Source: Candidatus Saccharimonadota bacterium (GTDB lineage: Bacteria; Patescibacteriota; Gracilibacteria; BD1-5; UBA6164). Taken from it: DNA of 32,000 bases. Shown here one piece after another: positions 1,080 through 28,868 of the stretch (the stretch's first letter is position 1; each line of letters opens with the position of its first letter). The DNA is taken from NCBI GenBank assembly GCA_965227835.1, contig OZ245768.1, positions 30,001 through 62,000 on the forward strand, in the 5' to 3' direction. Both the position numbers and the translations under genes were made by a program. The notes under the pieces are model-generated. The model saw only the letters and a program-made list of their open reading frames with translations, was not told the origin of the DNA and did not search any database.

Positions 1080-4000
1080 ATGGTTGAAAAAATAGAAATA
1101 GGTGGAGGTTCTATTGAGTCAAATTCAAGCAATAGAGTTGACACTTCAGTTAAAAGCGATGTAGAAGGTATTTTATGAAATAAAAACGAAATAAATACTT
1201 GTCTTACAAGTTATAGATTAAATCAAAATTTAAATAAAAAAAATTTTGATTTAATTTTTGAATCATTTTTAGAAAAAGCAAAAAGTGATGATAATTTTGC
1301 AGAAAATATAGTCCCAGCATTAATAAATACCTGAAATATATCAGAAGAAAAACTGAACTCTAGCTTTGATTTAATTTTAAGAGAATCAAAAAATAGAGAT
1401 AGTTGGTCAAGATATATATTTCCAGTATTAATAAAAACCTGAAAGATATCAGAGGATAAATTAAACTCTAATTTTGAGTCAGTTCTACAAGAAGCAAAGC
1501 ATAATACATATTTAGCAATATATGTAGTACCAGAATTAATAAATACATGAAGAATATCGGAAGAAAAATTAAGATTTTTAGATAATTTTTTTGATTTTGC
1601 TTTAAAAGAAGCAAGAACTAATCAGGACTTTGCAATATATATAATTCCAGCACTAATAAATACCTGAAAGATACCAGAAGAAAAGTTAAACTCTATTTTT
1701 GAATCATCTTTAAAAGAAGCAAGAATTAATAAGGACTTTGCAATATATATAATTCCAGCATTACTAAAAACCTGAAAAATATCAGAAGAAAAATTAAAAC
1801 TTCTAGATGATTTTTTTGATTTTGTTTTAGAAGAAACAAAAACAGATTATTATTGGACAATCTATATAGTTCCAGTATTAATAAATACCTGAAAGATATC
1901 AGAAAAGAAATTAAATTCCATTTTTGAATCATCTTTGAAAGAAGCAAGAATTAATGAAGATTGGGCAAAATATATAATTCCAGTATTAATAAAAACCTGA
2001 AAGATATCAGAGGATAAATTAAACTCTATTTTTGAATCATCTTTGAAAGAAGCAAGAATTAATGAAGATTGGGCAAAATATATAATTCCAGTATTAATAA
2101 AAACCTGAAAGATATCAGAGGATAAATTAAACTCTATTTTTGAATCATCTTTGAAAGAAGCAAGAATTAATGAAGATTGGGCAAAATATATAATTCCAGT
2201 ATTAATAAAAACCTGAAAGATATCAGAGGATAAATTAAACTCTATTTTTGAATCATCTTTGAAAGAAGCAAGAATTAATGAAGATTGGGCAACATATATA
2301 ATTCCAGCATTAATAAATACATGAAAGATATCAGAAAAGAAATTAAACTCTATTTTTGAATCATCTTTGAAAGAAGCAAGAATTAATGAAGATTGGGCAA
2401 CATATATAATTCCAGCATTGATAAATACCTGAAAAATACCCGAAGAAAAAATAAACTTTAGTTTTGAGTTAGCTTTAGAAGAAGCAAAAACAAATAGTTA
2501 CTGGGCAGTATATATAGTTCCAGCATTACTAAATACCTGAAAGATACAAGAAGAAAAATTAAACTTTAGTTTTGAGTTGGCTTTAGAACAAGCAAAAACA
2601 AATATTTTCTGGGCAGTATATATAGTTCCAGCATTACTAAATACTTGAAAAATATCAGAAGAAAAACTGAACTCTAGCTTTGATTTAATTTTAAGAGAAT
2701 CAAAAAATAGAGATAGTTGGTCAAGATATATATTTCCAGCATTACTAAATACTTGAAAAATATCAGAGGAAAAATTAAAGTTACTAGATGATTTTTTTTA
2801 TATAGCTTTAGAAAAGGCAAAAACAAATAATTACTGGGCAGTATATATAGTTCCAACATTACTAAAAACCTGAAAAGTATTAAATTTTACAATACTAGAA
2901 CACGATGAAGAATTTTTATTAAACTATAAAAGAAATAACGAACTATTTGACTCAATATTTAATAAATTAAATCAAAACTTCAAAATACTAACATTTCTAA
3001 ACAAGAATTTTCTAAATTTAGAAATCCTTGAAAAAGTAAATAAATTCTTAGAAAAATATCAAGTTAATACAGATATATTTTGAGAAAACATAGAAAAAAT
3101 TCTACAAAACGAAAATGGAATGGAAATATGATATTTTTTAGAATGTATAAAAAAAGAAGAAAATCTTCCTGAAAACTATCCAATAAATACAACCAATTTC
3201 ACAAACTACATAAAAGAAGAAAATGAAGTAATATTTAGCTTTGAAAAAGATGAATGATTAACCTGAGAAACTAAACCCTGGACAAAGAAATGGTTTTTAG
3301 AAAATACAGAAAGAAAAAATTACTTAAAAAAAGAAAATTACAAAACCATAAAGAAATTTGGAACAATAATCTGAATATGGTTACTATGATGATGTAAAGA
3401 TAAAAAAAGTCTAGAAAAATTCTATAAATACATATTCTCATCAATAAACATAAAAAAATCAAGAACAAGCCTACTACAGCTATGAGAAATATTTAATCTA
3501 ATCCTAAGAAAAGAAAATTACAGTTTACTAGATGAACTAGTATGAAACAAAGTAGAAATATGAAAATACTTTAAAAACTTTGTAGAACAATACAAAATCT
3601 CAGATAAATGAAAAACCATACTAACACTATTAATAACAAGAGAAATAAGAGATAGTTACCAAATATTTAATAACAAAAATTGAGACCAACAAGTAGACTA
3701 CACAAGTATAGAACGTTTATTATTATCAGTCTATAAAAAGCTAGAAAAATATAAAAAAGTAATAGAAATATACAAAAACATACCAGTAAAAACATCTATA
3801 TGAATAGAAATAGAAGTAACACAAAGTATATCAGAAGCATACAAAGAATTAAATCAAAGTGACTATAAAAATGATATAGAAATAATATCAGACTATAGCT
3901 GAATATCATCATGAAATGATGCAGTACATGAAATATGTACAAAACCAACAGATAACCCATATTTACTAATACTAGAAATACAACTACTCCAAGATTTAGA

Positions 4001-5192
4001 CTTCCTAGACCTAAACTTCAAAAAAGAGTGATATGACAAATGATCTAGATGATTACACATAACAATATGATGAAAAAAAATAGAAATGGATGAAGAAAGT
4101 AATTTCATACAAAACATACTATCACTATCAAACATATGAAGTGTAAACTCATGAGAAGAAATAAATAAAGTTAATTGTTATTGTAGTATAAGATGAAAAG
4201 GAGATTTAGAAGATATATATTGAAATGGAAGTTGAGTAGAATTTAGGAGTTTGAGTATAGATAAATTTGAACAATTTGAGAGGATGATAATATCCACATT
4301 TAATTTGTTTATGTTGAAACAGTTATCTATCAAAGAAATAACCAAAGAATTAAAAAATAAAAATGAAGAAGAAAATCTAAAAAAACTACAAACTCACTTT
4401 AAAGAATTAAAAACAAAAATAAAAAGAACTATAAAAAATCATAATGAAAATTTTTTAAGAAACGAAAGCTTAAATGAATGACTAGATAAAAATATAGAAA
4501 ACCTATTAAAATTATTTATAAGTACCTGACCTGTAATAGAACTAATAAATAAGCTAGATTTAAGTATTTGATATCTAAGAAGTATATGAGACACAGAAAT
4601 AAAAACCCAAGAAGAATTTGAACAAAGATTAAATAAGGACTGAAAAGATATATATAGTTTATGAAAAAAACAAAGAAAGATATTATATATGAACTACAAA
4701 ATAAGAATAAAACCAAACTTAGAAAAGATAAGGAAAAAAGATGAAGAACTATATAACAATATATGAAAATATTTAAATTGAAATTTAGATGAGACACTAA
4801 GGAAACTAACAAATAGATCTAGATTTTTAGAAGTATGTTTATGAGATGAAAAGAAACTACTAGATTATATAGAAAGTATAAAAATAGAACCAGAATATAT
4901 GTATGAAAAAATGGATGAGGATTTATCAAATAAATTTATTAGGATAAATAATCTTTTCATAAAAAAAGATTCAGTTAATGCTATATGAATGTTAACAACA
5001 ACTAAAGAAGAGGATTGAGTACTTGTTGATTTATTACAAACAGAGCTTAGTATATATGACAAGCTAGATAGATGAATTGAGCCTAGAAAATGATATAATG
5101 TTATCCAGTGAGCTAGTGAAGATATGCTTGTACATAGTGTTGCAAAGGAAATACTTGAATGTAATAGATTGGTTTTAGAGTATTTGAATTAG
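1080..5192 (+). CDS. Giant (1370 aa) repeat protein, function unknown; N-terminal 15 x 36-39-aa helical-looking repeats plus a K/E/N/I-rich C-terminal ~770 aa
   Basis: The frame (start mod 3 = 0) runs from ATG 1080 to TAG 5190..5192 with no TAA/TAG. It has many in-frame TGA. Track ORF 4251..4481 lies in the same frame. Confidence 0.8.
1240..2880 (+). repeat. In-frame tandem coding repeats, period 108 or 117 bp, 15 units; units at 1914..2237 are nearly identical at nucleotide level
   Basis: Consensus unit is NSIFESSLKEARINEDWAKYIIPVLIKTGKISEDKL. The block tttttgaatcatc recurs at 1921 and 2029 (108 bp apart). Segment 1346..1425 recurs at 2656..2735. Confidence 0.9.
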
Positions 5193-13830: not shown

Positions 13831-14095
13831 TTTTTTAATATTTGTTTAGTTTTATATCTTTTTTTCCATTATATTGTTATATAAAAAATTTAAAATTTAA
13901 ATTCTTATAAAAATCTAAATTTATTATATTCTTCATATAAATTTTAGTAGAATATAAAGGAAAATCTGAAGAATTAATACCTATTAAAAAGTAGTTTTCC
14001 AGAGACATATTAATTAATTTTGTAAAAATTTAATTTTTTATTAACATATTTATAGTTTAAGGAGAACATGAAAAATTAATATATAGTAAAAAAAT

Positions 14096-14647
14096 ATGAT
14101 TAAAAAATTTATATTAATAATAACAATTATATTTCTTCAATTTTCAAATTTAGAAATAAATGCAAATGATGCACAAAAACAGCAACAAGTATGGGATAGT
14201 GCATCACCAGAAGCAAAGCAAAGAGTTATGGATGAATTTGGATTGAGTGAACAAGAATTACAGAATAATCTTAGTGATTGACAGATTTGACCTATAACAC
14301 AAGCTTTAGCAGATGCTAACAGAGATCTTGATCCAAATAATCTATCATCACCAAACTATATGATAGATACTAATAATTTAGGTTTAGGAACAAGTTTAAA
14401 GAGAAATACAGCTGAAGATACAACGGAAAATGTATTAGCACAAATTGTAAACAAAATGTTAATAGCACTTTGATCTTTAGCTCTTTTTATGATGACTCTT
14501 GGTTGATGATATATGATATTTTCTCACTGAAATGATGAAATACTTGGTAGATGAAAAGCTTTGATAATAGCTTGAATAGTATCTATAGTAGTTGCTCTTT
14601 CAGCTTGAATAATAATGAGAGTTACTATTTATTTGCTTTATTCTTAA
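14096..14647 (+). CDS. TrbC/VirB2-like (type IV secretion pilin-like) small membrane protein, paralog A
   Basis: Signal peptide, then two C-terminal hydrophobic helices separated by a charged loop: ...LIALGSLALFMMTLGGGYMIFSHGNDEILGRGKALIIAGIVSIVVALSAGII. Confidence 0.65.
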
Positions 14648-14659
14648 AAAAATTTTTAA

Positions 14660-15022
14660 ATGAAAAAAATATTTTATATAGTTTTTTTTATAATCACTGC
14701 TTTTTCGCAAAAAGTTTTTGCTAATCCACCAGAGGATCTTCTACCCGATTTGCCATTACCTTGAGGTTGAGGTTGAGATTACAGTGAAAGTATTTCAAAA
14801 ATATGATGAGACCTTATTTCAACTTTTATAAGCTATGTGGCTATAATAGCTGTTATTGCATTGATGATAAGCTGAATAATGTATTTAGTAGCGAATTGAG
14901 ATGAAGAAAAAACTAAAAAAGCAAAAAATGCTATAACCTGGTCTCTTGTTTGAGTATTACTATCTATATCAGCTTGGGGTATAATAGCTGTAATAAACAA
15001 TTTAACTATAAATTTAAGTTAA
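14660..15022 (+). CDS. TrbC/VirB2-like pilin paralog B
   Basis: MKKIFYIVFFIITAFSQKVFA signal, then ...FISYVAIIAVIALMISGIMYLVANGDEEKTKKAKNAITWSLVGVLLSISAWGIIAVI. Confidence 0.65.
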
Positions 15023-15027
15023 AAAAC

Positions 15028-15396
15028 ATGAAAAAACTAATTTTTACATTATCCTCTGTATTATTTCTTTTTCTATTTAGTCTAAATTCTATTTTTTGAA
15101 ATGATTATGTGAAGAATGCTATGTTACCCAGTGATAGTTTACTTGTAGCAGAGGTATGAGAAGGTAAAGAAGGTTTAGTGTCTCTATTTTGATTTGCAAG
15201 GGATAGTATATTTGGGCTTTTAGCATTTATATCTATAAGTGTTTTTATATTTATGTGAGCTAGACTTGTAATGGCTAGATGAAATTCTGAGGAGCTGAAA
15301 AAAGTCCTTATTCAGTTTGTTTATTCTATAGTGGGATTAACTATAGTAGCATTATCATGGGCAGCTGTTCAATTGGTTTCAAGTTTAAATCTTTAA
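15028..15396 (+). CDS. TrbC/VirB2-like pilin paralog C
   Basis: Signal peptide, then ...IFGLLAFISISVFIFMGARLVMARGNSEELKKVLIQFVYSIVGLTIVALSWAAVQLV. Confidence 0.6.
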
Positions 15397-15405
15397 AAGC
15401 AAAAA

Positions 15406-15816
15406 ATGATAAAAAAAATATTTTTTTTAATGATTATTTCACTTTCAATTCTAATACCAAGCAATTTTGTTTTTTCTGAGTGTACATATTCATGAGATGC
15501 GAGCTCAGATTTAAAAGGTTGTTTAGAATGAAAATCTAAATTGGTCTCGACGGATAATTCTAATTTAAGTGTTGAAAGCTGATTTAAAGATAAAATCAAT
15601 ACCTGGGTTTTAAATATAGCTTGATTTTTAGGTTTGGTATCTGTTTTTGCTTTGGTTTATGCGGGATTTGTTATGGCAACAAGTATTTGAGATGAAGAAA
15701 AAATAAAAAAAGCAAAAGACTTAGTAAAATGGGTTTTGCTGTGATTTTTAGCTGTAGTAACATCGGGTACAATTATAACTATCACTATTAATTTTATGTA
15801 TTCACTTTGAGGTTAG
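15406..15816 (+). CDS. TrbC/VirB2-like pilin paralog D
   Basis: Signal peptide, then ...WVLNIAGFLGLVSVFALVYAGFVMATSIGDEEKIKKAKDLVKWVLLGFLAVVTSGTIITI. Confidence 0.65.
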
Positions 15817-19375: not shown

Positions 19376-20452
19376 ATGGCAAATAAAAACAACAATGTTA
19401 CTATACTTTATTGAGTTATATGAGCTTTATCACTTTTAGTGGTATGAATGTTTTGATACTTAGTATGACAAGGTTGAAATTGATGAAATTATTCATCAAA
19501 AATGTGATCTATAGATTCTGAAATATCTATGATAGCAGAAGCTTGAAGACTTGGTTTGGATGTGGAAGAATTAAGGCAATGTGCTAAAAGTAATAAATAC
19601 ACAGATAAAATTAACTCTCAAATGAGAAAATGAGGTGAACTTTTTGGTATAACTGGAACTCCTGGTAATATTTTGATAAACAATGAAACTTGAGAATATG
19701 AAGTGATAGCTTGAGCCTATCCTAAAGAAACTTTTATGTCTATAATAGATAGACTACTTTCAGAAGCTTCCGAAATTCCTCAAAATGAAAATGTAGAAAA
19801 AAAAGATTTTGTTTTAAGTAGTGATAAAAATACTCTTACAGTAATAAGCGATAGGAGGGACGGTACAACACCTTTAGAAGAAATAACTTGAAATTTAAGG
19901 CAGATAGAAAATATATGAAAAATGGAGATACAAAATTATGATTTTTCTGATAATGGTGTGGAAGAATATTTGAGAGAAAACAAAATAGAAAATTTACCTG
20001 CTTTTATATTTTCAACAAACAAAATAGATGACAACATAGATAGCTATTTAACAAAATTAGAAGGAGATAATTATTCTTTGAATGTATGAGCTAGTTTTAG
20101 TCCTTTTGGAGAGCTAAGTTCTAAGTGATTTAAAATACTTGATAAGAGCATTATAGAGTGAATAAAAAAAGATTCTTATATAGAATGAAATGAAAATGCT
20201 AAAATAACTTGGCTTGAATATTCTGATTTGGAATGTCCTTTTTGTGCAAGACTTCATAATTCTGATGTAGAATCTAGTTTAAAAGAAAAATACTCTTCAG
20301 ATTTAAACATAATTTTTAATCATTTCCCTTTATGATTTCATAAAAAAGCTTTACCTGGTGCTAAAATTTTAGAATGTGTTTGAGAACAAGGATGAGTTGA
20401 AGCTTTTTATAAAGTAATGAGATATTCTTTCAAACACGAAGTTCAAGAATAG
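19376..20452 (+). CDS. Membrane-anchored DsbA-like thiol:disulfide oxidoreductase with apparently permuted domain order
   Basis: TM helix VTILYGVIGALSLLVVGMFGYLV. The cis-Pro segment FGITGTPGNILINNETGEYEVIAGAYP (about 19640..19720) comes BEFORE the CxxC segment ITWLEYSDLECPFCARLH (tgt cct ttt tgt at 20234..20245). Confidence 0.7.
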
Positions 20453-20484
20453 TTGACTTTAAAACTTTTAAATATAATATGTTA

Positions 20485-20508
20485 AAACTCCTATAGTGGG
20501 AGTTTTTT
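20485..20508 (+). terminator. Rho-independent terminator after the DsbA-like gene
   Basis: Stem aaactcc (20485..20491) pairs with ggagttt (20499..20505), then a T run. The track's GTG start at 20496 lies inside this hairpin. Confidence 0.55.
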
Positions 20509-20537
20509 CTTTAACATTTTTAAAAAGGAGTATTAAA

Positions 20538-21638
20538 ATGTCAAAAAAATCTTTGGCTCATAATCCTATTATGAGAAGAGTTTTGGATCGTTCTTGTGAT
20601 TCTTTAAGTATTGTAAAAGAGATATTAGAATTCTATGATTTTGATATAACAAATCGTAGACCTAAGATATCTAGGGAACTTGTGACAGATTTAGATTTGT
20701 TTAGTTTCTTGTTTAATTTGGCTTCTAGGCAAGCCGTAATTAACATTCCAAAATATTTAATTAAAGATGATAAAAGAGTTTATTCGAATCAAAGGACTGT
20801 TTCTGATGAAAATCGTCATGGTAAATTACTTAGACTTGGTGCTAATAGAAAGCATTTTGGATTTTTTATAAGAGTTCATGATGCAAATGTTATCACTTGG
20901 GATTCTCAAGATAGAGAAGGTGTAGGTGCTTACAGAAACTTCTATGTTGTTTCACCTGACGGGAAGCTATATGATGGTTGGGATAATATTGAGTTTAGAC
21001 CAACTAGAAGAGAAAGTACTTTTTTTGAAGAAAATTTACATTTTATTCAAGACCAAAGTAAAATTTATTTCAGTAAATTTGTTCATAATTTTCATAATCA
21101 GATTCGCTTCAATAAATTTGTTCACGAAACCAGGAGAAATTCTATATTTTCTAAAATGTATTTGATAAATAAAGCTTTGCAAATTCGTCTTGAAGATGAA
21201 GCAAAATATTGTAGAGCTTTAGCTAAACAAATGCGAGAAAAAGGAATTTTCTATACAAAAGATGAACCATCTGATAGAATAAGTGAAATAGAGCTTGAAA
21301 GTCCTAAAAAACAATATTCTATAACTGAAATAAGTGTAGAAATTCCTGATTTTTCTGGTTTATATAGTTTTTCTAGTGAAACACCTAATGATTTGAAGGC
21401 ACTTGATGAAAGAGCTAAGTTAATATCTTATAAGCTACTTCCTAGGTTAAGGCTATGGACAAAGATGTGTGAACTTGGGTATGTTTTGTATTCTCCATAC
21501 AAAGATTATATAGCCTTCTGGGTTGAAAATATGTGGGAAGAAGGATATAAAAAACCTAAGGGAAGAAGTGTTTATTCATGTCTTAAAATAGACGAGGACT
21601 TTAACCTACTAAGAAGGGAGGTCACAATTACTGACTGA
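20538..21638 (+). CDS. Standard-code-style ORF (366 aa), no family recognised; likely foreign origin
   Basis: ATG 20538 lies 7 nt after AAGGAG (20525..20530). There is no in-frame TGA in 366 codons, and all 12 Gly codons counted by hand are GGN. It ends with TGA 21636..21638, 15 nt before a strong terminator. Confidence 0.75.
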   Translation: MSKKSLAHNPIMRRVLDRSCDSLSIVKEILEFYDFDITNRRPKISRELVTDLDLFSFLFNLASRQAVINIPKYLIKDDKRVYSNQRTVSDENRHGKLLRLGANRKHFGFFIRVHDANVITWDSQDREGVGAYRNFYVVSPDGKLYDGWDNIEFRPTRRESTFFEENLHFIQDQSKIYFSKFVHNFHNQIRFNKFVHETRRNSIFSKMYLINKALQIRLEDEAKYCRALAKQMREKGIFYTKDEPSDRISEIELESPKKQYSITEISVEIPDFSGLYSFSSETPNDLKALDERAKLISYKLLPRLRLWTKMCELGYVLYSPYKDYIAFWVENMWEEGYKKPKGRSVYSCLKIDEDFNLLRREVTITD

Positions 21639-21648
21639 AAAATATTAG

Positions 21649-21688
21649 AAAAAGGGCTGTATCGGTTAACCGATACAGCCCTTTTTTA
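21649..21688. terminator. Bidirectional intrinsic terminator (12-bp perfect GC-rich stem)
   Basis: gggctgtatcgg (21654..21665), loop ttaa, ccgatacagccc (21670..21681). An A5 run precedes it and a T6 run follows. Confidence 0.8.
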
Positions 21689-21877
21689 GGTAGTTTGCTT
21701 AACTTTTTCAAAACCATAGTGATTTAATGCAAACACTATTATTCCAAATGTTTGAAAAAATGTTGCAATAAAAATTTCTTTATTTGTATATCCAAAAAGC
21801 TTCCCTGAAGCTAAAGTAATAACAAATAAAACAATAGCTATATATGTAGCAGAAATAAAAATTTTATTTCAACACAT
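21686..21877 (-). pseudogene. C-terminal portion of a small two-helix membrane protein gene, apparently separated from its start by the IS
   Basis: ...KIFISATYIAIVLFVITLASGKLFGYTNKEIFIATFFQTFGIIVFALNHYGFEKVKQTT, with the stop at 21688..21686. The upstream boundary is uncertain. Confidence 0.4.
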
Positions 21878-22536
21878 CGGGATAAAAACCCCTATCTTTA
21901 GATAGTTAAGACACCGAAGGTGTAAGTGATAGAAATTGAATAAATGAGATGTGTTGTGACATAGGGTTTTAAACCCCGTTGCCTTCAGGCCGATTCTAAA
22001 GAAAAAAGTGTAAAAAATCAATAGAATAAATAAAATAGTGTTAAAAACTAACACTAGAGAGAATGAAATACCAAAAAAGTAGTCATGCGACATATGATGT
22101 CAGATACCATATAGTATGGATAACAAAATACAGAAATCCATTCATGAAAAAGAGATACAAGATAGATTGGAAAAGATCATAAGATGAATAAGTAAAAAGC
22201 TATGAGTAATAATAATAAAGATATGAATGGAAGAAGATCATGTACATATGTATTGTAGGATACCGTTAACTAAACCAATATCTACAATAGTATGACATAT
22301 AAAGTGAGAAAGTTCTAAGGCAATAAAGAGGTATTTTTACAAAGAAATTAAGAGATGGTATTGGAAGACATGAAATATATGGTGAGTATGATATTTTGTA
22401 TCTAGTGTATGAGAGATAAATTGAGAAATAATATCTAATTATGTGGAACAACAGTGAGAAGAAGAGAATAAGATTGAAGAGATAGAGCTTTAAATTTCAG
22501 TACAAATAAAAGCCCCGTGCCTTCAGGCCGGGGTAG
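21878..22536 (+). mobile_element. IS200/IS605-family insertion sequence (tnpA only); boundaries approximate
   Basis: tnpA is flanked by similar subterminal hairpins: ccccgttgccttcaggccg (around 21973..21991) and ccccgtgccttcaggccgggg (22513..22533). The size is in the usual IS200 range. Confidence 0.6.
22063..22493 (+). pseudogene. tnpA: IS200-type HUH/Y1 transposase TnpA, interrupted by a -1 frameshift in an A5 run (22147..22151)
   Basis: Frame 1 reads MKYQKSSHATYDVRYHIVWITKYRNPFMKK. Frame 0 reads EIQDRLEKIIRGISKKLGV...EEDHVHMYCRIP...HIKGESSK...WGVGYFVSSVGEINGEIISNYVEQQ. Several conserved Gly are TGA, so the element uses table 25. Confidence 0.85.
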
Positions 22537-22563
22537 AAGAAAAGCTAAAACTTTTTTACTCAT
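22537..22563 (-). pseudogene. Orphan gene start (MSKKVLAFL...) with strong Shine-Dalgarno, reading into the IS right end
   Basis: The minus strand reads GGAGGTGtaaaATGagtaaaaaagttttagcttttctt. The SD is the complement of 22568..22574 and the ATG is at 22563..22561. Confidence 0.4.
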
Positions 22564-22674
22564 TTTACACCTCCAAAGTGTTTTAGCAAACCCTACAAAA
22601 TATAGGTCTGCCATTAAAGTTAAAATTTAACAGAAAGACAGACTCTTTCTATTTTGTGTTATATATTATATTTA

Positions 22675-22703
22675 TTTAATATATATTTGTCAAGTTTTTG
22701 TGA
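22675..22703 (-). promoter_or_regulatory. Consensus sigma70-type promoter TTGACA-17-TATAAT
   Basis: The minus strand reads cTTGACAaatatatattaaataaaTATAATat. The -35 is the complement of 22698..22703 and the -10 is 22675..22680, about 110 nt upstream of ATG 22563. Confidence 0.45.
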
Positions 22704-22762
22704 TTCTATTTTCTTAGCTGAAAGAATTGATGATAATTTTTTCTGTATATGAAGATTAAAAG

Positions 22763-22964
22763 TATAGTAAACTAAATTACTAGTTATCTTGATATATAAT
22801 ATGATGAATAAACTGGGTAATATTTTCTCAAAAAGATAAACTTCTTACAAGACCAAAGGGCTAAAGCCCTCTGTTGACAAACAATAAGAAATTGTTTTTT
22901 CAATTAAATTCGTATTTTAAAATAGTCTAATTTACAAGTTAGTTTACTATAAACATAAAAAAAG
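22763..22964 (-). repeat. Family-A composite repeat, long copy R2
   Basis: Aligns with 12001..12200 in the same orientation and contains caaagggctaaagccctctgttg at 22854..22876. Confidence 0.75.
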
Positions 22965-23003
22965 ACCAAGAGTTTTGTATAAAAAACTTTTGATCTTTTT
23001 TTT
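22953..23003 (-). terminator. Terminator after nrdB
   Basis: Stem 22963..22976 pairs with 22983..22996 (two G-T pairs) and has T-rich tracts on both strands. Confidence 0.55.
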
Positions 23004-23009
23004 CCCTAA

Positions 23010-24062
23010 TTAAAACTCCCAGCTTCAATTCATAGCACTTGATTGAGCATAGTTTACAACAGTGGACTCAAAAAAGTTACCTTTCTCTGAATTGTTATCT
23101 TGAAGTCTATCCAAATGCTTGTAAGGGTTTTTAGTGACATTTTCAAATAGTGGAGCTATACCCAACATATTAAGTCTTTTATTTGCTAACCATTTTGTAT
23201 AGTTTTCTACATTTTCATTACCCATTCAAATTATAGATTTTCAAAGTATATGCTTAGACCATTTTATTTCTTGATTTACAGCTGTCTCCATCATATCAAC
23301 TATCATTTTCTCATCATATATATCAGGAAATTCTTTTTTTATTTCTTTCATCATATTGGCAAATATAGTTACATGTGTAAGCTCATCTCTTCTTATATAG
23401 CTAATCATTCTATCACTAGCAACCATTTTTCATTGATCTGCAAGTGTATCAAAAAAAGCAAATCAGTTGTAAAAATATATACTTTCTAATAAGAAATTTC
23501 ATATTATTCATCTAAAAAAATTCTTATCACTTGGGTTATCTATAAAATCTTGATATATTCATCATATAAATTCATTTCTTTCAAGTAAGTGTTTGTCATC
23601 TCTCCAAAAGTAATATATATCATCTCTTTCTTTTGCATCTACTATTGTTTCAAGCATAGTAGCATAACTTTGAGAATGAATTGCTTCTTGGTAAGCTTGA
23701 ATAGATAAAAGAAGATTTACTTCAGGAGCTGTTATATACTCATTAAAATTTGGTAGATTTACTGTTTGTATTGAATCAAGAAAAATTAAAAAAGATAATA
23801 TTCATTTATATGCTCTTTTTTCCTCATCACTTAGTGCAGTTTTCATTTGTATTGCATCTTCTCATAAACCTGAAACTTTTTCTGGTACCCAAAAATTACC
23901 TACCATTACTTGATACATAGATTTTGCCCAAGAATATTTGGTGGCATTAAGCTGAAACAATCCCGTAGATTTCCCCTTTATAATTGTCCTTTTTGATACA
24001 TCATCATCTCATTTTGGATTAAAAATGAGATTAGCTTTCATTTTCTCTTCTTTTTTTGTCAT
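23010..24062 (-). CDS. nrdB: Class I ribonucleotide reductase beta subunit (350 aa)
   Basis: ...FLDSIQTVNL...QAYQEAIHSQSYATMLE...SYIRRDELTHVTIFANMM...NYAQSSAMNGSWEF. Track ORFs 23025..23225 and 23241..23426 share the frame. Confidence 0.9.
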
Positions 24063-24091
24063 TTTTATTTTTTAATTAAATAAATTATTTT

Positions 24092-26704
24092 TTATCAACT
24101 GCAACTTTCACATTCTTTTATTTCTAAGCTCATAGATCTAACATAGTAAACGGTTTTGATTCATTTTTCATGAGCTCTCATATAATACTCATATAATTCT
24201 CTAGGAGAAACATTTTGAGGATTTACTATCCACTCAAATGAAACAGATTGATCAATCCATTTATATATTGTAGCTACCATATCTATTACATCTTTCATAT
24301 TTAGACTTACATATTCTTTGTAATACCAAAAATTTTCCTCACTCAAATTTGGTGCCACATTAACAGATGGAGCAATAGCATTTGTTTCTACAAAGTATTT
24401 TTTATAAATAGGCAGTATTGAAGCCGTGGTTCATACTACTAAAGCTGTTGATGTATTAGGTGCTGGTGCTAGGTGATAAGCAAATCTAATTCATCATGAT
24501 TTAATATTCTTAATCAATTCTAACCATTTTTCAGATATTTTAGAATTGTTTTTAAACCAGTTTTTATCTTTTCATATCAAAATTCATTTTGACCATTCAC
24601 TTCACTCATACAGCTCATAACTTCCTCTTTCAAACGATAATTCATTACTTGATTTCAAAGAACTATATGCATATTTTTCAAATAAGCTATCTACTACTTC
24701 TCTAGCTTCTTCGCTATCATATGCCAGTTTATTTGTTGCTAAATATTCTGCTAGTCATAAAAATCAAATTCATACAGATCTATACCTTTTTGCTGTTCTT
24801 TCTGTTTCTTTTACAGGATAGAAATTTAAAGTTATTACATTATCAAGTAAACGAGTAACTATTGGAAATATCTCCTCTATATCTTTGTCTTTATTTACTT
24901 TTGCCACATTTACAGAAGCTAAATTACAAACAACACTATCTCAAGGTTCGTATCTAATATTTATAACTCAATCTTCTATTGTTTCTTCTATAAATTTTGA
25001 TGCACTTGTATTTTGACATATTTCTACACATAGCTGTGTAGAGTATATATTTCATGCATGCTTATTTGGATTTAGGTTGTTTACAGTATCTCTAAAAAAA
25101 GCATAAGGCATACCTGTTTCAACAGTTGCTTTCATATATGATTTGAATAATTCTTTGGAACTAACTGTTTCTTTTAATTCAAGTTTAGGATTTTGTTCGC
25201 ATTCGTGATAAAATTCATCAAATTCATCCCCAAAGTAATCTTGCAGTTTTTTTCAAGTTTTATCATATACTTCTTTTGGATCAAAAAGTGTCCAGTTTTC
25301 TCAATTTTTTACTCTTTTCATAAATAAATCAGGAAAACTCACAGAAGGGAATACATCGAAAGCCTTGCTTCTAATATCTCATGTTTCTGTTTGAAGTTCC
25401 AAGAAATCATATATATCTTTGTGGAATACATCTAGTGTTACAGAAATAGCTCAAGCTCTAGCTCAAAGTTGATTAACAGCTACAGCAGTATCATTTATAA
25501 CTTTTATCCAAGGATTTACTCATCATGCTGTTCATTTTATATTTCTTATATATGATCATTTACTTCTTATGTTTCATAAATAAACACCTATTCATCATCC
25601 AAATTTTGATACTTGTGCCATATTTTCAATAGAATGATATATAGCTCTTAAATCATCATCTACATTAAATTTAAAACAGCTTGATAGTTGATGAAAATTT
25701 GTTCTAGAATTTAGTAATGTAGGTGTAGGAAGACTTATTTTTCATGTTGCACATGCATCATATATTTTTTTAGCAAAAGATAGTCTATTTTCTTCTTTCT
25801 CAGGTATTGCCAAAAATAAAGCTATACTCATATACATTTCTTGTGGTAGCTCCCATACTACCTTGTTTGGATTCAGTAAATATCTTCTTTTATACATCAT
25901 AATTGTTGTATAATTGTAGTCAAAGTCATATTCTTTCTTCAAATATTCTCAAGCTTTTTTAATATCTTCTTTAGAATAGTAATCATAAAATTTTTTATAA
26001 TATATTCATTTTTTTACATAATTGTCAAATAGATCAACATAATGTTTGGCTTCATATATTTTTCTTATATCCATTTTTCTATTTTTCGAAGCTTCTTTAT
26101 ATAAATCAATTAATGCCAGCCTTCAGGCTATGAATTGCCAGTTTGTGTTTTCTACATTTATCAAATCTATAGCTGATTTAATCATCATTTTCGTTATATC
26201 ACTTGTTTTCATTCATTCAACTATGTATTTCTTTAAAGATTCTTCCAATTTTTCAAACTTACATTTTCTAGCTAATTTGTAATTAACTTTTTTATAAGTT
26301 TCTTTAACTTTTTCTATATCAAAATCTTCTGATTTTCAATTACTTTTTTGTATTTTCAATGTATTTTTTTCAAGCTTTTTCTCTACTTTCTCTTTAGATT
26401 TTTCTCTTTTTCTAGCTCTATTAGCCCTATATATTATAAAATCTTTACCTACATCAAAATATCATTCTTGCATCAAAACTTTTTCTATCTCATCTTGAGT
26501 TTCTTCTATTGTTAAAAATCATATTTCTCCTTTCTTTATCAAAATTTCCTTTAAATTTTGTACTACTATATCTGTTACATTCTCTATAAAAGACATATCA
26601 ATTTTACCTCTTGATATAGCTGCTTTTTCTATAGCATTTTCTATTCTACTTCTATCAAAAGCTACTAGGTCTCAACTCCTTGTTTTTATAAATTTAATTT
26701 TCAT
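24092..26704 (-). CDS. nrdA: Class I ribonucleotide reductase alpha subunit with N-terminal ATP-cone (870 aa)
   Basis: MKIKFIKTRSGDLVAFDRSRIENAIEKAA (ATP-cone); LSSCFKFNVDDDL; TQLCVEICQNTS; C-terminal ECESCSG. Track ORFs 24161..24358 and 25742..25942 share the frame. Confidence 0.95.
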
Positions 26705-27343
26705 CTTGTAAGAAAAATAAGATTCTAAAATAACGTCTAAATAATTTAATTAATTTTTATTTTTTTGCTACAATTTTTTATACAAGAATGTTAAAAAAAT
26801 ATCTGCAAAATGTTAAAAAGTAAGAATAAGCTTTTATTTTAAGAAAGTTTTTGATTTTAAATATCTTTTATAAAATATATTTGATTAGAGTAAATATTCC
26901 TTTAGTTTTTGACAAATTTTTAAGAATTATTTTTGTGTTAGTCTTTTATTCTACTTTATTTTCAAGAATAAATTGGAATTAGAAAATTTTTCTTATAATG
27001 AAAGTATTAGCAATGGATCAAGATAAAATGCAAGGGGTCAAGACCCCTTGTCCTGAGGAAATTCTGAAAAATTACCTTTCTGAATTAATAGCAGATTTGT
27101 GATAATAATTATTATCAAGATGGCAAGCCCCCTTTGCCATTAGGAAAACCTGAAAAATTCATATTTTGCTCTAATTGAGAACCTGAAAAATTCATTTAAA
27201 AGAAAAATAATCTTTTTTATTAATTTTCATTCAAAAATTCTTAGCTTAGAATATCTAAAAAAAAATTTATTAAAAATTACCTAAAAATGTTTATTTTTAT
27301 TTAAATGAAACAATTTTTTATAGTTTCCTAAATTTAAAATTAA

Positions 27344-27973
27344 ATGAAAAAAATGAACATATTTGTATTTGATACAGAGACTACTTGATTTGTGGATAAA
27401 AAAGAAACTGATTTAAATAAGCAACCCTATATAATTCAGTTTGCTTGAATACTTTGAGATGTAGATTTAAATTGAATATTTCATGAAAAAAAGAGAATAG
27501 ATGTGATGATAAAACCTCCTATTTCTATTCCTTATAATTCTTCTAAAGTTAATAACATATATGATATAGATGTTAAAGATAAACAAGCAATAGAGGTGAT
27601 AATTGATGATATTTTGTATTATATCAATACTCCTGATTTAATAGTATGACATAATATAGATTATGATACAGAATTGGTAAAGATAGAATTGTCTAGGCTT
27701 GGTAGATCTTATGATTATAAGCCTAAGCAAGTTTTTTGTACTATGAATGAAACAATAGATTATTGTAAACTTCCTAAAAAAAATGAAAATTCTTCTTGAT
27801 ATAAGAGGCCGAAACTTTGAGAGTTGCACAAGAAGTTATTTGGAGAATATTTTGTAGGGGCTCATGATGCTATGGTAGATGTAGAAGCTACTTTGAAATG
27901 TTTTGTAGAACTTTATAAGAATTGAATTGTGAAAATAGAAAAAAAACAAAATAATGTCATGACTTTGTTTTAG
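27344..27973 (+). CDS. DEDDh 3'-5' exonuclease, DnaQ / Pol III epsilon-like (209 aa)
   Basis: Exo I IFVFDTETTGF, Exo II LIVGHNIDYDTELV, Exo III GAHDAMVDVEATLKCF. Confidence 0.85.
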
Positions 27974-28022
27974 TTTAAATCTTTTTTAATAGTAAAATTT
28001 ATATTCTAACTTTATTGAAAAT

Positions 28023-28253
28023 ATGTCTAATTTTTGAGATCTAGTTAATATTGAAGAGTTTTGAGATAGGAGGCAGGAATTTAATATGGATAGAGGAGAT
28101 GTTACATTTTATTGTAAGGATTGTGAGAAAAAAACACAGGTTGATAGACCTAATCCTAAAGGTTATATTTTTGTGTGTAGAGTTTGTAGTTGAAAAAATG
28201 TAGCAATAGGTACTCTTGAATGAATAAATGAGAGGTTTAAAATAAAATCATAA
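28023..28253 (+). CDS. Small zinc-ribbon protein (76 aa), hypothetical
   Basis: The pairs CKDC...CRVC sit in MSNFGDLVNIEEFGDRRQEFNMDRGDVTFYCKDCEKKTQVDRPNPKGYIFVCRVCSGKNVAIG. Confidence 0.5.
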
Positions 28254-28259
28254 TTTAGC

Positions 28260-28868
28260 TTATATTTCTTTTCTTTCTTTCAGAGCATTTACTAGTGTTA
28301 AATTATCTGCATACTCTATATATCAAGAAGATAATCACCTAGAAAGCCTTGTTATAAAGACTTTGTGTTTTATTTTTCTTTTTTCTATTTCTTCTATTAT
28401 GTAGTTAGTGGTTGCTTCTCCTTCTATATTTGGATTTGTAGACATAATGATTTCTACTTTCTCTTCTGATTTTTCTATTCTTTCAAATAGGTTTTTGAAA
28501 TTTAAATCTCATACAAAGACTCAATTTATAGGGGATATAGCTCATCCTAGTATATGGTATACTCATCTAAATCATCAAGATTCTTCTATTGTTAGCATAT
28601 CTAGGTATTCTTCTACTACAGCTATTTGATTTTGATTTCTACTGCTATTGTCGCATATAGTGCATTTTTCTTTATTAATATCAGTGAGAGAGTTGCATAT
28701 AGTGCATTTTCAAATTTTTTCCTTTATGTTTGTCAGGTTTTGGCTTAGGTTTTCTATGTAGTTTTTGTTTGAGTTAAGCAAAAAAAAAGCTAGTTTTGTA
28801 GCTGATTTTTCTCATATTCATGGTAGAAACGAGATGGAGTTTATAAGTCTTTTTATAGCTTCAGGCAA
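28260..28868 (-). CDS. recR: Recombination protein RecR (202 aa)
   Basis: (TTG)PEAIKRLINSISFLPGIGEKSATKLAFFLL...CTICNSLTD..CTICDNSSRN...IAVVEEYLDMLTIEESGGFRGVYHILGGAISP...TNPNIEGEATTNYI. The start codon is uncertain (TTG 28868). Confidence 0.9.

Follow-up and report, generated by a model that had tools for sequence, protein, structure and literature searches.

Alternative genetic codes are often called firewalls against gene exchange. TGA-free foreign genes with atypical codons are known in other TGA-recoded bacteria, e.g. the code-4 Mollicutes. Among putative phages of Gracilibacteria, 34 of 38 were found to be code-11-compatible, with no in-frame TGA and with TGA stops backed by nearby stops (Liu et al., mBio 2023, PMC10746230).

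The gene described here resembles the code-11-compatible phage genes of Gracilibacteria and Absconditabacteria (PMC10746230) in that both are TGA-free ORFs in, or exposed to, code-25 cells and both have a later stop after a TGA. The backup stop of our gene is a TAG 17 codons past the TGA, inside a terminator hairpin. Such phages could plausibly have been the source and the vehicle of the gene. They were recovered as whole genomes through CRISPR spacer matches (PMC10746230), whereas the present locus is one chromosomal gene under purifying selection. It follows the same logic as codon-atypical xenologs of the code-4 Mollicutes and other bacteria, in which donor codons and signals persist until amelioration and the distribution is patchy. 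It differs from other xenologs in that its signal is categorical and hence unusually clean, as the codon used for 74% of host Gly is never used, and in that a relic Shine-Dalgarno (SD) sequence and a relic stop accompany it. We consider that the gene is a xenolog that was acquired singly from a donor, probably viral, with the standard code and became fixed in one Gracilibacteria lineage, with a probability of roughly 0.78.

Codon usage in the recoded chromosome

The window, i.e. the whole 32 kb stretch of DNA that was analysed, is part of a code-25 (TGA = Gly) chromosome of Candidatus Gracilibacteria. ORFs of at least 120 codons cover 13% of it when TGA is read as stop and 87% when TGA is read as sense, and GroEL, MurA, NrdA/B and RecR have many in-frame TGA codons at Gly positions. 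Read with table 11, the window has just 7 ORFs that reach 90 aa. The longest is the target gene, a coding sequence of 366 codons on the plus strand (20538..21635) that holds no in-frame TGA and encodes a member of an unannotated family of DPANN archaea and uncultured viruses. As the initial annotation had claimed, no other TGA-free frame in the window is of comparable length: the table 11 reading gives 366 aa from the ATG at 20538, or 380 aa from an upstream GTG, and the second-longest ORF is 180 aa.

The neighbours of the target are genes for a DsbA-like protein, a small membrane protein, NrdB/NrdA, GroEL and MurA. Phage genes (terminase, portal and integrase hallmarks) were not found among the window neighbours, the window has no CRISPR array, and tRNA and Rfam scans of it gave no match. 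We looked for direct or inverted repeats at the borders of the insert and found none that was convincing. Location in a phage genome or prophage was rejected, given the native neighbours and the lack of hallmark genes and flanking repeats.

All 12 Gly codons of the target are GGN (GGT 6, GGA 4, GGG 2, TGA 0). The remaining 24 genes of the window, pooled, write 380 of 516 Gly codons (73.6%) as TGA, and the share is at least 36% in each other gene of 100 codons or more. An IS200-like tnpA about 430 bp downstream of the target has TGA at 11 of 11 Gly codons and thus serves as an internal control, showing that mobile DNA resident in the genome is also fully recoded. Arginine codons of the CGN type are enriched as well (6/31 in the target versus 6/215 in the other genes, Fisher p = 0.0013), and four of the six are held by the family-conserved arginines R18, R40, R93 and R217. 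Both contrasts had been pointed out from the sequence and were reproduced by our counts. In the comparison of codon usage with the contig, Gly and Arg lay outside the normal spread, whereas the other synonymous usage of the target and its GC3 (0.19) were host-like. The anomaly is therefore confined to Gly and Arg codons and translation signals and does not extend to global composition. Host-like usage outside Gly and Arg fits an AT-rich donor and long residence alike. GGT, which makes up 6 of the 12 target Gly codons, is two mutational steps from TGA, and GGA (4/12) alone is one step away, so that the figure of 0 of 12 overstates recency.

Start, stop and terminator signals

The upstream native DsbA-like gene is followed by a terminator-like hairpin on the plus strand (20484..20506), with a 10-pair stem and then a T-run. 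The hairpin is identical in the sister strain (L001). In three more distant Gracilibacteria (L078, L079 and L080) a hairpin likewise lies directly 3' of the DsbA gene, with a different sequence. The hairpin probably marks where native DNA ends on the left, and the foreign segment would extend from about 20507.

An AAGGAG Shine-Dalgarno sequence on the plus strand (20525..20530) is located 7 nt before the ATG at 20538 and is the sole SD in the window. Among 24 starts the target alone has an SD core of at least 4 nt (0/23 for the other starts examined), in agreement with the initial annotation, and of the 38 further AGGAG pentamers in the window not one lies at SD distance from a start. We read AAGGAG as a relic of donor translation signals.

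The coding sequence is followed on the same strand by TGA (21636..21638), which means Gly in the code-25 host. The TGA is within 4-8 residues of where the C-termini of the family end, and it is kept in the sister strain. It appears to have been the working stop of the donor era. Its stop-like placement 15 nt before the strongest terminator, which had been noticed at the outset, was borne out for the G+C core of that terminator, and the palindrome itself starts 10 nt after the TGA. The palindrome is perfect over 19 bp (AAAAAGGGCTGTATCGGTT / AACCGATACAGCCCTTTTT, 21649..21686), is flanked by an A-run and a T-run, and would form a bidirectional intrinsic-terminator-like hairpin common to two convergent genes. 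No other terminator-like hairpin in the 32 kb is as long or as rich in G+C.

The public gene call reads through the TGA to give a protein of 383 aa. The read-through tail on the plus strand (21639..21689) consists of 16 codons, KILEKGLYRLTDTALF, and TAG 21687-21689, and is encoded by the terminator hairpin. The predicted peptide at the read-through junction is EVTITDGKILEK. This TAG shares 2 nt with the stop codon of the convergent gene for the small membrane protein. The protein sequence of the tail is identical in the sister strain, with one synonymous change beside the hairpin centre. Read-through of the TGA is expected to occur in the host, because code-25 lineages reportedly have tRNA-Gly(UCA) and no RF2.

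Protein family and structure

The product had been described as matching no family. This holds for curated families and for PDB, but a large unannotated family exists, with at least 226 clusters at 50% identity. When the target, its relatives and conserved neighbours were compared with Pfam-A, PHROGs, NCBIfam and PADLOC, no match was obtained for the target, and none of 102 family members had a consistent Pfam match. No match was found among PDB sequences by phmmer and profile searches, and a tblastn search of 50,697 phage records was negative.

The AlphaFold model of the target has a pLDDT of 92.3 and a pTM of 0.91. Its sole low-confidence loop (pLDDT <50 at residues 173-182) is the region of a lineage-specific in-frame tandem duplication on the plus strand (direct repeat D1, 21054..21124), with a 39-nt period (SKFVHNFHNQIRF / NKFVHETRRN...). 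The duplication adds about 13-15 residues and corresponds to a gap in all homologs aligned. Foldseek searches against PDB with two models (one of pLDDT 92) returned nothing at E <=0.1. The only significant structural match was the BFVD model of A0A127AX08 from Bacillus phage SP-15 (Foldseek E = 4e-11, TM 0.60, 378 columns). A0A127AX08 is 361 aa in length compared with 366 aa for the target, sequence identity is 14%, and its function is likewise uncharacterized. As judged from these models, the two proteins probably have the same fold and belong to the same superfamily.

Our best guess at function, a tentative one, is that the target is a basic accessory protein that binds nucleic acid and is of viral origin. 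The guess is based on a family median pI of 9.0, several near-invariant arginines, weak sub-threshold Foldseek resemblances to Sm/SH3-like barrels (Pelota N-domain, Sm proteins, CAP-Gly), and the viral and archaeal gene neighbours. A capsid or encapsulin-like structural protein was rejected as there was no HK97-type fold match, and a PD-(D/E)xK nuclease as the motif does not fit. Membership in DUF932 was also rejected: a DUF932 gene is present on one viral contig, yet no family member matches the model.

To survey homologs, genome contigs were scanned with a 7-sequence alignment. In about 75 homologous loci for which the DNA was read, in-frame TGA was found in none; the count leaves aside a frame-broken match with all three stop kinds (L031) and the terminal TGA of the sister strain. 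One of the scan patterns, [NQ]AVINIPxY, has no Gly, so that recoded copies were within reach of the scan. High coding density under the standard code is seen at each of the 46 loci of 5 kb or more, the sister strain excluded; these are chromosomes of DPANN archaea or viral contigs that are AT-rich and use SD sequences. The named genome matches are all archaeal (two Woesearchaeota and one Bathyarchaeota), and the loci read also include IMG/VR viral contigs such as UViG_3300037104_000592 and UViG_3300032103_000125. The finding of homologs solely in standard-code genomes agrees with the proposal in the initial annotation that the gene was transferred from a table-11 organism or from a phage or element using the standard code.

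The IMG/VR contigs with homologs have AGGAG-type SD sequences at similar spacing, a GC content of 23-29% and 0-30% CGN. On standard-code viral-type relatives 28% of ORFs (82/288) end in TGA. Genes with an SD number 6-10 of 11 on viral-type contigs versus 1-3 of 11 at archaeal chromosomal loci; four of five archaeal homologs have no SD, and the exception (L009) has a 4-nt GGTG core. Outside the sister strain the best identity to the target is about 35-40%. The target scores 256 bits with the HMM of the viral group and 240 bits with that of the archaeal group, and the majority of cross-group scores are higher than either. In the NJ tree and with group-specific HMMs it is an unplaced long branch, an outlier to every subgroup, and phylogeny therefore cannot name the donor.

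The viral homologs sit among genes for RNA polymerase, RNA ligase and the 7-deazaguanine pathway, and they are often fused to a vWA domain. The fused proteins are 588-602 aa in length. Their N-terminal 370 residues belong to the family of the target, at 32-34% identity, and the vWA part, which the target lacks, matches phrog_7371 and PF00092. At three other loci unfused homologs are paired with PP2C phosphatase and protein-kinase-like genes. The vWA/PP2C/kinase context of some viral relatives recalls the vWA-phosphatase-kinase association said to form a 'TerY-P triad'; a search of the window found no PP2C or kinase genes adjoining the target and no vWA domain in its protein. Homologs in Woesearchaeota adjoin a TrmB-type regulator gene.

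Probable acquisition of the gene and its age

The sister strain, an independent ENA assembly from another sample, has both junctions in the same form at 96.5% nt identity, and the 3.5% divergence is spread over the gene and its flanks. The exact 383-aa product is also recorded on a 1.49-Mb contig. The check for misassembly that had been called for is thus answered by an independent assembly that spans both junctions, which indicates that the target is not a chimera. Between the two strains the target has a dN/dS of 0.13 and a dS of 0.12, and the native DsbA-like neighbour has values of 0.10 and 0.13, respectively. The dN/dS of 0.13 indicates purifying selection on a functional gene.

The three more distant Gracilibacteria conserve the upstream block (TM1-4/peptidase-like/hyp712/DsbA), and their DsbA proteins are 59-64% identical to that of the window. 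No target homolog was found after DsbA on these three contigs by tblastn with code 25, and over about 31 kb all real genes in these genomes have many TGA codons. In the sister strain the target is present, and 842 bp that include the IS200-like tnpA (21712-22553) are missing. The target was therefore rejected as a passenger of the adjacent IS200/IS605-family element, which the sister strain lacks and whose tnpA is fully recoded, and the element was rejected as the agent of transfer given the same absence. The acquisition is bounded in time: it predates the split of the two strains (dS about 0.12), and the time since then has been too short for codon equilibration. For the 'recent' of the initial proposal, these bounds are what the data give.

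The donor was most likely an AT-rich, Shine-Dalgarno-using virus like the carriers of the closest homologs, with a DPANN archaeon less likely; the direction and the vehicle of transfer are what we infer from these features. The gene would have come as a self-contained cassette and would have retained AAGGAG, Gly codons of the GGN type only, CGT at conserved Arg and a TGA stop just before an intrinsic terminator. As the 61 ordinary sense codons have the same meaning in both codes, the ORF would be translated correctly in the new host. The stop alone would fail: TGA would be read as Gly, and the ribosome would continue for 16 codons through the hairpin to the TAG at 21687-21689. The product in the host would then be 383 aa instead of 366, with a 17-aa tail encoded by the terminator.

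A donor among DPANN archaea, e.g. a Woesearchaeota cell of the same habitat, is unlikely in our view, even though every named genome match is archaeal, homologs on chromosomes that are clearly archaeal adjoin a gene for a TrmB-family regulator (L004, L005 and L009), and the archaeal-group HMM score nearly equals the viral-group score. SD sequences are rare at the archaeal loci, the AAGGAG of the target resembles those of the viral-type homologs, the AT-richness of the target is better matched by viral-type contigs, and viruses are the commoner vehicle between domains. Misjoining of a standard-code fragment into a Gracilibacteria contig would account for the compositional oddity and for that only. 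It is scarcely credible, since the junctions recur with divergence spread over gene and flanks, the identical product is on record from the 1.49-Mb contig, GC and general codon usage agree with the flanks, and the stop of the read-through frame overlaps that of the native convergent gene. The chance that a native gene with few glycines simply came to be TGA-free is practically nil. The Gly content of the target is indeed low (3.3%), but the probability of 0/12 TGA-Gly is 1.1e-7 at the host TGA fraction and 0.005 even at the lowest per-gene fraction (0.36, genes of at least 100 codons), and hyp309, which is also Gly-poor (2.6%), has TGA at 5 of 8 Gly codons. Chance would also leave unexplained why the gene has an SD and CGN codons, why syntenic relatives lack it and why its family has a foreign distribution.

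A different kind of explanation is that TGA is kept out of the gene by selection, either in a code-agnostic pool that cycles between code-25 cells and viruses or cells with the standard code, or through limitation of tRNA-Gly(UCA), with TGA-Gly copies being lost. The code-11 compatibility of most Gracilibacteria phages has been ascribed to host-range selection (PMC10746230). The general codon usage of the target is already host-like, and the gene is far diverged from its sampled relatives and still TGA-free; if this large divergence arose inside Gracilibacteria, time alone accounts less readily for the total lack of TGA. The DsbA-like neighbour has a GGA/TGA difference between the strains, which shows that such changes arise on the strain timescale. 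Against this, the strain comparison of GGA-to-TGA change has low power, since for four one-step GGA codons at a dS of about 0.12 fewer than one change is expected, and time alone suffices. The target is moreover a single chromosomal gene between native genes in two strains, without phage or mobile-element hallmarks, and the CGT relics at conserved Arg indicate general incomplete amelioration rather than a TGA-specific constraint. We therefore regard selection against TGA as quite improbable. A stronger version, in which a code-neutral pool is actively held TGA-free by cycling and read-through into the terminator hairpin is functional, seems more doubtful. If it were true, translation of the tail might couple to terminator suppression, and the C-terminal extension might distinguish the code-25 product (383 aa) from the standard-code product (366 aa).

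On the preferred reading, in which one gene was acquired from a donor with the standard code, the locus is a clean example of an already known kind of event, and no point overturns current understanding. The TGA-to-Gly firewall leaks one way: a TGA-free standard-code gene works at once in a recoded cell, and the stop alone fails. The donor 'fossils' (SD, GGN Gly, CGT Arg and TGA stop), together with two diverged strains, give a handle on the rate at which foreign genes are recoded, and the same locus informs the fate of transferred TGA stops. It also draws attention to a sizeable family, present in DPANN archaea, in uncultured large viruses and now in a CPR bacterium, whose fold is predicted with confidence and has no relative among solved structures.

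Codon usage and expression signals of the TGA-free gene

ORFs of at least 120 codons covered 13% of the AT-rich window (17-30% GC) when TGA was taken as a stop and 87% when it was taken as sense. Translation with table 25 gave GroES/GroEL, MurA, NrdA/NrdB, RecR, MsrB, glycosyltransferases, a pilin-like protein and others, with TGA occupying conserved glycine positions. NCBI assigns homologs of the DsbA-like gene adjoining the target to Candidatus Gracilibacteria. This makes the host a code-25 CPR bacterium, in line with the assumption of the initial annotation. A gene at 1080-5192 (+) encodes a 1370-aa protein with 55 in-frame TGA codons; its N-terminal ~600 residues consist of ~42-aa tandem repeats (...YIIPALINTGKISEEKLNSIFESSLKEARINEDWA...), several copies of which are identical. 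Four small genes in a row at 14090-15816 (+) code for proteins that have a signal peptide or TM segment and carry a hydrophobic hairpin at the C-terminus; the first of them weakly matches T4SS_pilin (PF18895, E = 0.003). Next in order come a gene resembling zinc metallopeptidases (Peptidase_Mx1) and one for a hypothetical protein of 707 aa, and the block is syntenic in other Gracilibacteria (contigs L079 and L080).

Seven ORFs of at least 90 aa were found in the window with table 11. The target was the longest (380 aa from an upstream GTG, 366 aa from the ATG at 20538), and the second-longest had 180 aa. The 12 glycine codons of the target were GGT (6), GGA (4) and GGG (2), with no TGA, whereas TGA made up 380 of 516 glycine codons in the other 24 genes of the window and at least 36% in every other gene of at least 100 codons. 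The probability of finding 0/12 by chance was 1.1e-7. CGN triplets accounted for 6/31 arginine codons in the target versus 6/215 elsewhere in the window (p = 0.0013), and four of the six were located at family-conserved arginines, as expected for frozen ancestral codons. AAGGAG was located 7 nt upstream of the ATG; no Shine-Dalgarno (SD) core of at least 4 nt was present at any of 23 other starts examined in the window, and no other AGGAG in the window lay at SD distance from a start. The 366-codon ORF (20538-21635, +) ended with TGA at 21636-21638 (+), followed by a perfect 19-bp palindrome with A- and T-runs (21649-21686); no other terminator-like hairpin in the 32 kb is as strong. Our recount thus reproduced every feature first described for this gene: the TGA-free frame, GGN glycines, SD, CGN arginines, TGA stop and terminator. 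The comparison of codon usage set only glycine and arginine apart, as the remaining synonymous usage and GC3 were ordinary for the host genome.

Distribution and structure of the protein family

A phmmer search of 1.8 billion cluster representatives retrieved 226 clusters at E <= 1e-3, none of which exceeded about 40% identity to the target apart from the sister-strain copy. The protein, for which the initial annotation recognised no family, is not an orphan; no Pfam model matched any family member. About 75 homologous loci were read as DNA. Homologs with TGA as in-frame glycine had been named as a check on the standard-code reading, and that reading was supported: no in-frame TGA was found in the homologs at these loci, leaving aside the terminal TGA of L001 (the sister-strain contig) and L031, where the match to the family is broken in frame and contains all three kinds of stop. 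Glycine was absent from one scan pattern, which made TGA-recoded copies detectable. No family member had Trp at the invariant glycine columns, so code-4 gene calls gave no sign of TGA either. Standard-code coding density was high in 46/46 loci of at least 5 kb (L001 excluded). ORF coverage of one locus, L051, was 0.93 with TAG as sense versus 0.60 with the standard code, and this contig may be TAG-recoded; in another, L077, coverage was low under all stop sets but TAA as sense.

The homologous loci were of two kinds, archaeal chromosomes and IMG/VR viral contigs. The archaeal loci included two named Woesearchaeota, one Bathyarchaeota and further contigs with archaeal ribosomal and replication genes, and a TrmB-type regulator adjoined the homolog in three. 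The viral contigs were 18-470 kb in size, had nearly all genes on one strand and very few Pfam or PHROG matches, and encoded multisubunit RNA polymerase, RNA ligase/RlaP and DNA ligase. FolE2 (7 loci) and Gat-QueC (3 loci) were located near the homolog, and the family domain was fused to a C-terminal vWA domain in 7 viral contigs. In L021, L034 and L045, tandem paralogs (about 255 aa and about 375 aa) stood beside a PP2C phosphatase and a protein-kinase-like gene, an arrangement that resembles vWA-phosphatase-kinase triads. The uncultured AT-rich IMG/VR contigs L060-L070 (e.g. L064, 610-11831) carried two large multisubunit-RNAP-like proteins and FolE2, with almost no PHROGs matches, and a conserved series of five small genes lacking annotation adjoined the homolog.

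An AlphaFold model of the target, built from a 102-sequence alignment (pLDDT 92.3, pTM 0.91), comprised an N-terminal helical segment, a beta-rich core, two long helices (206-234 and 283-318) and a C-terminal sheet. The core carried the residues D53, Y73, R93, G95, D115, G130, R133 and G142, which are invariant or nearly so in the family. A 39-nt in-frame tandem duplication unique to the target's lineage added a disordered loop. Both profile and structure searches, as proposed at the outset, were run on the 366-aa protein; Foldseek found no PDB structure at E <= 0.1, and the sole BFVD match was an uncharacterized protein of Bacillus phage SP-15 (TM 0.60). The family is basic (median pI 9.0). 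As a tentative guess, the protein might be a nucleic-acid-binding accessory protein.

Conservation between strains and the downstream segment

L001, a contig of 10 kb from another ENA sample, had the gene order of the window (DsbA-like gene, target, small convergent membrane-protein gene, NrdB, NrdA) and 96.5% nucleotide identity over the target and both junctions. It shared the upstream hairpin, SD, TGA and tail with the window, and the exact 383-aa read-through product of the window was found as a public record on a 1.49-Mb contig. The locus is no assembly artefact. Between the two strains, the target (dS 0.123, dN/dS 0.13) was indistinguishable from the native DsbA-like neighbour (dS 0.130, dN/dS 0.10), and is therefore under purifying selection in Gracilibacteria. 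Since both strains have it, it is older than their split. Divergence from L001 over 19376-28868 was mosaic: dS was 0.12-0.20 for the DsbA-like gene, the target and an RNase T-like gene, 0.08 for NrdB and 0.006-0.008 for NrdA and RecR, a pattern that suggests recent inter-strain recombination.

Three more distant Gracilibacteria contigs (L078-L080) encoded DsbA proteins with 59-64% identity to that of the window. Upstream of DsbA, the window had a block in common with L079 and L080 (four small membrane proteins, a peptidase-like gene and a large hypothetical gene); this comparison covers these two contigs, as L078 starts at DsbA. Directly after DsbA, all three had a convergent giant gene; tblastn with code 25 found no target homolog in the three contigs, and all their real genes were TGA-rich. 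Among the Gracilibacteria compared, the target is restricted to the lineage of the window, which includes L001.

An IS200-family transposase gene was located at 22063-22493, ~430 bp 3' of the target. Its tnpA-like ORFs (IS200/IS605-family Y1 transposase; 22063-22140 and 22083-22493, +) are broken by a frameshift near 22137 and matched PF01797 (Y1_Tnp) at E = 1.7e-32 with the two frames joined. GC-rich hairpins flank the gene (~21963-21995 and 22512-22533; ...CCCCGTTGCCTTCAGGCCG... / ...GCCCCGTGCCTTCAGGCCGGGG...). The gene served as an internal control: all 11 of its glycine codons were TGA, so full recoding extends even to mobile DNA carried by this genome. The 842-bp IS200-like segment (21712-22553) was absent from L001, where 162 unrelated bases stand; the element was rejected as the bringer of the target, which L001 has. 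The small convergent membrane-protein gene (64 aa at 21686-21880 (-) in the window, 82 aa at 2349-2597 (-) in L001) was alike only in its last ~8 codons, and a remnant start like that of L001 (ATGAGTAAAAAAG..., minus strand, ~22556) was cut off in the window by the segment. This makes the region 3' of the target a spot that varies between strains.

Origin of the gene and its reading in the host

The main interpretation of the initial annotation, transfer from a standard-code source, was supported by codons, signals and family distribution. Selection keeping TGA out of the gene is an unlikely explanation; in its favour, the target is strongly divergent from all known relatives. Of the target's glycine codons, half are GGT, from which TGA is two steps away, and just four are GGA. 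Given these four and the single GGA/TGA difference between strains in the DsbA-like gene, the number of such changes expected in the target is below one. Judged from the sequences, the putative transfer took place before the two strains split (dS about 0.12) but too recently for the codons to have equilibrated.

In the protein tree the target formed a long unplaced branch, and group HMMs scored it at 256 bits (viral) and 240 bits (archaeal). Homologs on viral contigs usually had an AGGAG-type SD at a spacing similar to the target's, and genes with SD numbered 6-10/11 on viral-type contigs versus 1-3/11 on archaeal chromosomes. With 23-29% GC, CGN use of 0-30% and 28% of ORFs ending in TGA on viral-type contigs, the SD, CGN codons and TGA stop of the target would be ordinary there. 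We lean toward a donor of viral type, to which the non-coding and codon relics point. Most putative Gracilibacteria phages are reported to be code-11-compatible and TGA-free, with TGA stops backed up by nearby stops (PMC10746230); such phages would be a plausible vehicle.

Because its sense codons are common to both codes, the 366-codon body would be translated correctly in the host. A code-25 cell reads TGA as Gly. The TGA at 21636-21638 would be decoded in this way and the frame would run for 16 codons (KILEKGLYRLTDTALF) to TAG at 21687-21689; public gene calls give the same 383-aa product. It is the palindromic terminator that encodes the tail, and proteins of the family usually end no further than 4-8 residues from the TGA position. 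We argue from this arrangement that TGA was probably a working stop when the cassette was assembled.

The evidence makes the target a well-documented case of a known kind of event, in which donor-type codons and signals reveal horizontal acquisition. It stands out by its categorical TGA contrast, by a relic SD and by a relic stop in need of read-through; the gene family itself had not been described before.
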